Positions 6,880 to 33,562 of a DNA stretch of 60,569 nucleotides are shown in pieces. This DNA is from Negaprion brevirostris. Lineage: Eukaryota. The notes beneath the pieces were generated by a model, which ran no database searches, had not been told where the DNA came from, and saw only the letters and a program-made list of their open reading frames with translations. A program made the translations under genes and the position numbers. Each line of letters opens with the position of its first letter. The first letter of the stretch is position 1. The DNA is taken from positions 39,613,078 through 39,673,646 of the forward strand of contig JARDVH010000025.1 in assembly GCA_030324005.1 (NCBI GenBank), written 5' to 3'.

Positions 6880-7240
6880 AGGGGAGATCCTGAGAGCCAG
6901 CAGGGCGGGTGGTGGAGGCTTTAAGGTCACTGCTGGGAAAGGGGGACATGAGGCTCTGAGCGGCTCCGCCATCCATGGTCCAGCCCCGCTGGCTGAGCGT
7001 CACTCGCTCCTCCCCGAGTAAGCAGCAGTGAACAGAGGAGCTGGAGCTGCTTCTGCCTCTCTCTCTCTGCCCCTGCTCATCCACACCTACCTCACATGGT
7101 GTGTGTGTGTATGTGTGTGTCCTGTTCTCCCAGGCAGGGCTTCGTTATTTCAGCATACCACCCCCGCCCCCCCGCCAAATCCCCACCTCCCCGCTCGCAT
7201 GATTGTATAAATCTCCTAACTGAAAAAGGAAGCTACAAAC
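6880..7240 (+). promoter_or_regulatory. PDE7B: putative PDE7B promoter
   Basis: Local GC/CpG enrichment; GC boxes at 6903, 6964 and 7161-7176; CRE half-site CGTCA 6998-7002; (CT)n and (TG)n tracts 7056-7120; TATAAAT 7206-7212, about 270 nt upstream of the ATG. A TSS near 7235 is inferred only. Confidence 0.7.
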
Positions 7241-7379
7241 AGTGAGAGAAAGAAAATAGAAGCAACTGGCGGAGACTGTGTTTTCCTGGAGTCACTCGGG
7301 GGCTTGCCTCCGATTTTTTTTTGGTTTTTAAATTATTTGGGGAGGTGTGTATGCGTGTGTGAGAGCTTTGCCATCCTGG

Positions 7380-7499
7380 ATGCAGCTGCTGGATTGTGCA
7401 GCGCCAAGCTTCATGAGCAACCCGCACCAATTGGAGATTCCAAGGCATTCCAGGGTCACCAGACTGCCACTATGGTTAAATGTCTTGTTTAATGGTTGA
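7380..7499 (+). CDS. 39-aa upstream ORF overlapping the PDE7B start (MQLLDCAAPSFMSNPHQLEIPRHSRVTRLPLWLNVLFNG)
   Basis: ATG 7380, in-frame ATG 7413, TGA 7497-7499; open throughout and out of frame with PDE7B. Translation is not demonstrated. Confidence 0.55.
   Translation: MQLLDCAAPSFMSNPHQLEIPRHSRVTRLPLWLNVLFNG
7472..7492 (+). promoter_or_regulatory. 6-codon overlapping uORF (MVKCLV*) in strong Kozak context
   Basis: GCCACTATGG (A at -3, G at +4); its stop TAA 7490-7492 shares an A with the PDE7B Met5 ATG. Confidence 0.65.
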
Positions 7500-7500
7500 G
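7480..7500 (+). CDS. PDE7B: cAMP-specific phosphodiesterase 7B, coding part of exon 1 (MSCLMVE)
   Basis: ATG TCT TGT TTA ATG GTT GAG followed by donor GTACGT; matches the PDE7B N-terminus MSCLMVE(RCG) as I recall it; in-frame TAA directly upstream; phase 0 joins exon 2. Confidence 0.93.
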
Positions 7501-7943
7501 GTACGTATTGTGGAAGCTTCAAGGTGAGCAATAGACGAGTAAATATAAATTTGCCGTNNNNNNNNNNNNNNNNNNNNNNNNNNNNNNNNNNNNNNNNNNN
7601 NNNNNNNNNNNNNNNNNNNNNNNNNNNNNNNNNNNNNNNNNNNNNNNNNNNNNNNNNNNNNNNNNNNNNNNNNNNNNNNNNNNNNNNNNNNNNNNNNNNN
7701 NNNNNNNNNNNNNNNNNNNNNNNNNNNNNNNNNNNNNNNNNNNNNNNNNNNNNNNNNNNNNNNNNNNNNNNNNNNNNNNNNNNNNNNNNNNNNNNNNNNN
7801 NNNNNNNNNNNNNNNNNNNNNNNNNNNNNNNNNNNNNNNNNNNNNNNNNNNNNNNNNNNNNNNNNNNNNNNNNNNNNNNNNNNNNNNNNNNNNNNNNNNN
7901 NNNNNNNNNNNNNNNNNNNNNNNNNNNNNNNNNNNNNNNNNNN

Positions 7944-8091
7944 TGTATCTGCCTGGGTTTGGGGATGGAGGGTTGTATCTGCCTGGGTTTGGGGATGGGG
8001 GGTTGTATCTGCCTGGGTTTGGGGATGGAGGGTTGTATCTGCCTAGGTTTGGGGGTGGGGGTTGTATCTGCCTAGGTTTGGGGAGTGGGGG
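7944..8091. repeat. G-rich minisatellite, ~30-bp unit TGTATCTGCCTGGGTTTGGGGATGGAGGGT
   Basis: About five copies are visible; the array probably continues into the N gap 7558-7943. Confidence 0.93.
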
Positions 8092-33501: not shown

Positions 33502-33562
33502 AGGTGTGGAGCTATCTCATTTGATGGTGCTGATCAGAATGCCCTATGTGTTCGCATGCTAG
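33502..33562 (+). CDS. PDE7B: PDE7B coding exon 2 (RCGAISFDGADQNALCVRML-G, 61 nt)
   Basis: Acceptor TTTACAG and donor GTAAGA, phase 0 to phase 1. Aligns with mammalian PDE7B RCGEILFENPDQNAKCVCMLG and PDE7A [21 protein letters not shown] as recalled. Confidence 0.94.

Follow-up and report, generated by a model that had tools for sequence, protein, structure and literature searches.

A conserved overlapping upstream open reading frame in the PDE7B leader of Negaprion brevirostris, a probable brake on translation

Described upstream ORFs and the layout of the PDE7B leader

ATF4 is induced by stress through a mechanism in which a short upstream open reading frame (uORF) in strong context, located well upstream, licenses delayed reinitiation. 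The leader of PDE7B resembles that of ATF4 in that a long out-of-frame uORF overlaps the main start and, in published human data, carries a ribosome load above that of the main ORF. Unlike in ATF4, no conserved short uORF in strong context was seen well upstream, and the 3-codon ORF at 7351 in the sequence analyzed here is weak. The inhibitory, stringency-sensitive uORFs of Hoxa1/a9/a11 and eIF5 described in Ivanov 2022 (PMC8892498) have conserved upstream AUGs in poor context, as does PDE7B, but PDE7B combines weak upstream AUGs with a strong proximal upstream AUG and a weak main AUG. With the CPuORFs reported in Takahashi 2020 (PMC7530721), the PDE7B uORF shares a length between 20 and 99 codons, a conserved peptide and a C-terminus that is its most conserved part; it differs from them in not showing a low Ka/Ks, as judged from three DNA sequences in which the synonymous sites are themselves constrained.

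The closest system is the orthologous uORF of human and mouse PDE7B, which is already known: published tables list the human/mouse pair as conserved and its human member as translated. The pair NM_018945_2 / NM_013875_1 is among the 204 human/mouse uORF pairs in the table of Crowe 2006 (PMC1402274), and both orthologues have 39 codons, are colinear with the sequence studied here and keep both Mets, the same overlap and the same spacing. The tables of Ji 2015 (PMC4739776) contain PDE7B:NM_018945:chr6:+:203:322, a human ORF of 120 nt; they class it as an overlapping uORF that is translated and has a conserved mouse counterpart (Ka 0.0455, Ks 0), and place it in a sheet of uORFs translated more than threefold more efficiently than the main ORF. 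Both sets of tables deal with human and mouse only and are without gene-level analysis, and their rows do not give the mini-ORF at 7472 or the stop-start on Met5 that are described below. The original prediction had called the ORF unannotated, which is correct for the reference annotation only, since these two tables list it; the human peptide that it had given matches, by eye, the human row of Crowe 2006. The suffix _2 of that human entry implies another upstream human uORF, unpaired with mouse.

Dataset S1 of Ivanov 2022 (PMC8892498) lists 394 genes in which a poor context of the main AUG is conserved, PDE7B among them, the criterion being that the poor context is kept in 90% or more of those placental mammals that were examined, and the bases flanking the main AUG are the same in our sequence as the human bases listed there. 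PDE7B is not in the file of 122 obligatory cases of that paper and appears in its other files in the background list only. In the 7,264-ORF human table of Sandmann 2023 (PMC10032668), searches by name, id and peptide gave no row for PDE7B. In 9 of the 16 files of Mackowiak 2015, where overlapping ORFs are filtered by design, the only entry was a main-frame mouse row that is truncated, and PDE7B is wholly absent from 11 of the 14 files of Ruiz-Orera 2024. No functional study of the PDE7B uORF was found in the literature searched, which lay outside subscription journals. What is added here is the depth of conservation, the missing peptide-coding signature, and a 6-codon ORF that opens in strong context and ends in a stop-start on Met5.

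The window, that is the whole stretch of 60,569 nucleotides that was analyzed, contains the following elements.

7164..7211, + strand: predicted promoter, with a GC box at 7164 and TATAAA at 7206 (motif positions)
7351..7362, + strand: 3-codon uORF in poor context, within a GT-rich run
7380..7499, + strand: 39-codon overlapping uORF (frame A); its AUG has a poor context (-3 T, +4 C); orthologues in human and mouse, the human one listed as translated
7413..7415, + strand: second in-frame AUG of frame A, giving a 28-codon form, in poor context (-3 T, +4 A)
7480..7500, + strand: PDE7B coding sequence within exon 1 (7 codons); the main AUG has a poor context (-3 T, +4 T)
7501..7506, + strand: splice donor of intron 1, GT at 7501, phase-0 fit to exon 2
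33502..33562, + strand: PDE7B exon 2, 61 nt, in which the next in-frame Met is codon 26

Direct reading confirmed the 39-codon frame, its second Met at 7413, the overlap with the PDE7B ATG, the terminal TGA and the donor spacing, all of which had been predicted. Translation of 7380-7499 gave 39 residues and TGA, identical to the predicted sequence, and the TGA (7497-7499) is followed by G 7500 and the donor GT at 7501, so that the stop lies one base before the donor. The AUG of frame A is 5' of the main start and out of frame with it, and its stop is 3' of the main AUG, which makes it an overlapping uORF. The distance from the uORF start to the main start is 100 nt in the window (7380 to 7480) as it is in human, and both context bases of AUG 7413 are identical in human and mouse (by eye, from the Crowe 2006 row). 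Within the PDE7B frame, Met5 corresponds to the AUG at 7492 (-3 T, +4 G). An in-frame stop stands immediately 5' of the main AUG and rules out an N-terminal extension of PDE7B; splicing of frame A into exon 2 was ruled out on inspection, as the stop lies 5' of the donor. An assembly gap of 386 nt (7558-7943) begins 57 nt into intron 1 and is followed by a short G-rich tandem repeat (7944-8080).

The identity of the gene was established from its exons. The 7 codons of exon 1 are the N-terminus of mouse Pde7b, as given in a row of a published supplement, and exon 2 was picked among 5 pattern candidates by its likeness to the same mouse row. Exon 3 and the catalytic exons (PF00233, PDEase_I) are on the same strand of the same contig (C25), 73-115 kb downstream. 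From the promoter motifs, a predicted start site would lie near 7235-7240, upstream of all start codons in the 7351-7492 cluster. Frame A is within the mRNA leader in the human and mouse RefSeq mRNAs and, judging from these motifs, would be so in Negaprion brevirostris too. In a look for expression in this species, contigs from 4 of 4 runs gave no coverage of the uORF, a blank that does not prove its absence. The rodent PDE7B promoter is cAMP-responsive. A half-CRE (CGTCA) is present at 6998, 5' of exon 1, and no full CRE palindrome with at most one mismatch was found in the L001 locus.

Conservation of frame A and its coding signature

Out-of-frame ATG ORFs starting at least 99 nt upstream cross 136 of 1451 sampled points of the window (9.4%). 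Such an overlapping ORF is ordinary in a single genome, and it is the conservation that exceeds chance. DNA was compared by eye for three sequences (window, human and mouse). The window and human are identical at 96 of 117 nt, with no indel, and share 27 of 39 residues. The 21 differing nucleotides are all in codons 2-28, are distributed 6/9/6 over the codon positions and represent about 6.5 synonymous and 14.5 nonsynonymous differences, so that nucleotide identity over codons 1-28 is 75%; none falls in the last 33 nt of frame A (P = 4e-4). Human and mouse differ at 4 of 117 nt and all four differences change an amino acid, which agrees with the Ks of 0 in the Ji 2015 table. Human and mouse both retain the start, the frame and the stop, with the same length and both Mets in each row. 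The predicted maintenance of frame, Mets and stop as far as human was thus borne out, and a check of human and mouse for frame-breaking indels, internal stops and lost ATGs found none. For 21 substitutions, the probability of keeping both AUGs and the open frame was 0.10; for a rough 35 it was 0.014, with an ascertainment bias. Retention of these features beyond nucleotide conservation is suggestive, not strong.

A coding signature was not apparent. In simulations of 21 random substitutions, the observed numbers were unexceptional, both for synonymous-only codons (P = 0.26) and for amino-acid changes (P = 0.50). A crude pooled omega, calculated from raw differences in two comparisons that share the human lineage, was 1.11 (95% range 0.48-2.94), and an omega of 0.2 was rejected by likelihood in each comparison (P = 0.013 for human-mouse, P = 0.002 for window-human). 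Synonymous and nonsynonymous sites are both constrained (pS 0.29, pN 0.25); as synonymous sites are only 29% diverged, the RNA letters themselves are constrained. The original prediction had offered a conserved micropeptide or a translational switch and had named dN/dS as a check on the former. The ratio gave no support to peptide selection (human-mouse Ka 0.0455 with Ks 0, pooled omega as above). The ribosome-gating half of the proposal was supported, the human frame being listed as translated, and the micropeptide half was not, as Ks, simulation and likelihood all lacked a coding signature.

Searches of public protein collections returned six proteins containing frame A (P0002-P0007), all gap-free and matching the window at 27-28 of 39 residues. 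They were found as open frames and are hence uninformative on frame retention. At the stop position each of the six has W, after which the sequence is unrelated; they are most likely vertebrate PDE7B exon 1/intron 1 genomic DNA mis-called as protein, with TGA read as Trp, and we discounted them as evidence for a real protein, gene-caller artefacts being the most likely explanation. A further hit, P0008, is a repeat protein that matched by chance and was dropped before rows were counted. In the 7 rows formed by the window and the six homologues, 24 of 39 columns are invariant and the second Met (7413) is present in every row. Position 15 holds four different residues, and S/L, S/P and K/E changes also occur. 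The single change within the block of the last 33 nt among the six homologues is L31V in P0006, at a first codon position. The -3 T of AUG 7380 is implied in P0002.

We considered the possibility that the 39-residue peptide itself is selected, either as a cis-acting ribosome-arrest peptide or as a trans-acting micropeptide, and we regard this as unlikely. The invariant columns and the absence of indels are what such a peptide would leave, conservation peaks at its C-terminus, as it does in known arrest uORFs, and the high ribosome density on the human frame could reflect stalling. An omega near 1 with both classes of sites constrained is moreover compatible with the peptide being selected in addition to the RNA. 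Yet there is no excess of synonymous change, and the variability of position 15 and the nature of the other replacements fit poorly with a selected peptide. The invariance of the C-terminus is shared by its synonymous sites and falls where AUG 7472, the main frame and the donor lie. Family searches were also negative: the protein search gave no homologue of 22-70 aa, none of the 2 homologues tested had a Pfam family, and a search of the Atlas with the peptide gave no usable match. In the searches made, frame A thus had neither the known family nor the annotated homologue of a stand-alone microprotein.

A cluster of start codons as a probable brake on PDE7B synthesis

The invariant block at the end of frame A contains more start codons than the main one, as well as the end of an additional frame.

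7472..7492, + strand: 6-codon overlapping ORF in the third frame; its AUG has a strong context (-3 A, +4 G) and precedes the main AUG by 8 nt
7376..7492, + strand: candidate third frame (frame B), 38 stop-free codons opened by a CUG whose context is strong (-3 A, +4 G)

AUG 7472 and its context, the main AUG and Met5 all lie in the last 33 nt of frame A, and codons 29-32 of frame A are the strong context of AUG 7472 read in another frame. AUG 7472, which the original prediction had overlooked, accounts for a large part of the invariance at the C-terminus; the L31V replacement of P0006 would leave this AUG, its -3 A and its +4 G intact. The 6-codon ORF is identical in human and mouse (by eye, from the Crowe 2006 row). 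Its TAA (7490-7492) shares one base with the Met5 AUG at 7492, in human and mouse as in the window, so that the stop and start codons overlap. Termination-reinitiation elements are recognized by an upstream ribosome-tethering motif or by a downstream start that depends on termination ahead of it. The 6-codon ORF was not found in the published tables searched, which is a weak blank; the catalogue of 7,264 human ORFs reportedly has a lower length limit of 16 codons.

The explanation that we favor, with a probability of roughly 0.62, is that frame A is a conserved leaky-scanning brake on PDE7B synthesis and its peptide a by-product, the repression itself being deduced from the layout and one Ribo-seq study. 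The cap would lie upstream of all start codons, as the TATA-like box at 7206 and the GC box at 7164 suggest. Ribosomes starting at AUG 7380 or 7413 would end at 7497-7499, beyond both Met1 and Met5, and would yield no enzyme. Those leaking past the weak starts would come upon AUG 7472, which is strong, ahead of the weak main AUG at 7480. Synthesis of PDE7B would be left to the minority winning the competition between 7472 and 7480, 8 nt apart, or starting or restarting at Met5, and the net outcome would be a low, tunable output of PDE7B. Gu 2021 and Li 2022 describe competition between closely spaced AUGs, within about 17 nt of each other; as an upstream AUG inhibits less when it is near the main AUG (Gu 2021, Li 2022), some ribosomes are expected to start at 7480. 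Selection would then bear on start codons, contexts, spacing and open frames, i.e. on RNA letters, more than on amino acids.

The direct basis for a brake is a layout found identically in human and mouse, together with a ribosome occupancy in human more than threefold above that of the main ORF, in one study. Several observations weigh the other way. The human table of 7,264 ORFs (Sandmann 2023, PMC10032668) does not contain the ORF, and nucleotide conservation by itself makes it only mildly unlikely that the AUGs and the frame would be retained (P = 0.10). A brake also leaves the 75% identity of codons 1-28, beyond the two AUGs, without an account. Structure in the leader does not seem to contribute, as no stable RNA structure was found in 7330-7461 (z +1.2).

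The start codons at 7380, 7413 and 7480 are all in poor context, the arrangement of a stringency-controlled leader. By analogy with the genes in Ivanov 2022 (PMC8892498), it is plausible that the PDE7B leader would respond to eIF1 and eIF5, and the direction of this response is not obvious because the inhibitory and the productive starts are both weak. In a bolder version of the brake, the start codons of three frames would form a switch, conserved to the letter from a distant vertebrate to mammals: the long uORF would set the throughput, AUG 7472 would catch most of the leakage and the stop-start would hand ribosomes to Met5. Much PDE7B would then arise by termination-reinitiation under stringency control, as a form without residues 1-4, including Cys3. 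We consider this elaboration quite improbable.

PDE7B degrades cAMP and is discussed in reviews as a drug target. If ribosomes are mostly spent on the uORF, the level of PDE7B mRNA would be a poor guide to the level of the enzyme. Variants in the leader could alter cAMP signalling, and blocking the upstream AUGs could raise the enzyme, if the brake is real. The focus shifts from the peptide to the cluster of start codons.

Another explanation is that the conservation is not translational at all but reflects a promoter-proximal DNA element, or an RNA-binding or splicing signal belonging to a first coding exon that is short; that the frame is open and translated would then be incidental. The equal constraint on synonymous and nonsynonymous sites would be expected in this case, and so would a retention of AUGs and frame that is only marginally improbable under plain nucleotide conservation. 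The stretch is also suitably placed, 170-290 nt downstream of the TATA-like box and adjoining the donor. Yet its most invariant letters are start codons and their contexts, and a frame that carries more ribosomes than the main ORF in human is hardly neutral for output. An Rfam search of 6900-7461 gave 2 matches, both far under the gathering score, hence no family at that threshold. On balance, a purely non-translational origin appears rather improbable.

Frame B might instead be the selected unit, as a CUG-initiated 38-codon ORF (7376) joined to the strong AUG 7472 and the stop-start on Met5, frame A being secondary. Both of its starts are in strong context and, from 7382 on, it is also stop-free in human and mouse (by eye). 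Of the four differences between human and mouse, three are silent in frame B (by eye), and 8 of 13 amino-acid changes among the six homologues fall at position 2 of frame-A codons, which is the third position in frame B; this count, however, registers only changes that alter frame A. The pooled omega for frame B was 0.55 with a range (0.26-1.25) that includes 1, and the position bias was not significant (P = 0.29). The tables of Ji 2015 (PMC4739776) list frame A and no frame-B ORF for PDE7B, and none of 54 protein candidates matched frame B in a protein search. We think it very unlikely that frame B is the primary target. Finally, an action mainly through nonsense-mediated decay of the mRNA is hardly credible: although the uORF stop is upstream of all later exon junctions, with many exons downstream, and uORF-linked decay is described in general terms in Crowe 2006 (PMC1402274), decay requires no conserved length or sequence and is compatible with a brake.

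The PDE7 paralogue

A separate PDE7 paralogue was found on the minus strand of another contig (C59, 64.89-64.98 Mb, L016-L035), with 67% identity over one exon; from its N-terminal motifs, we take it to be PDE7A. No uORF-like sequence was found in the 200 kb examined near this paralogue, and no second copy of the uORF in the genome itself (best other match E 4.2). Five upstream ATGs are within 500 nt of the first start of the paralogue, none of which opens an ORF overlapping that start. Sandmann 2023 (PMC10032668) lists a 6-residue uORF, conserved in vertebrates, in another human PDE7A leader; a motif search of the C59 paralogue, of which the intron concerned contains 13% N, did not find it. 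Exon 2 of PDE7B (33502-33562) is about 70% identical in DNA to the exon of the C59 paralogue, and its start resembles the paralogue more than mouse Pde7b, so that, from sequence likeness, it may keep the ancestral state. It contains three out-of-frame ATGs ahead of the in-frame Met26.
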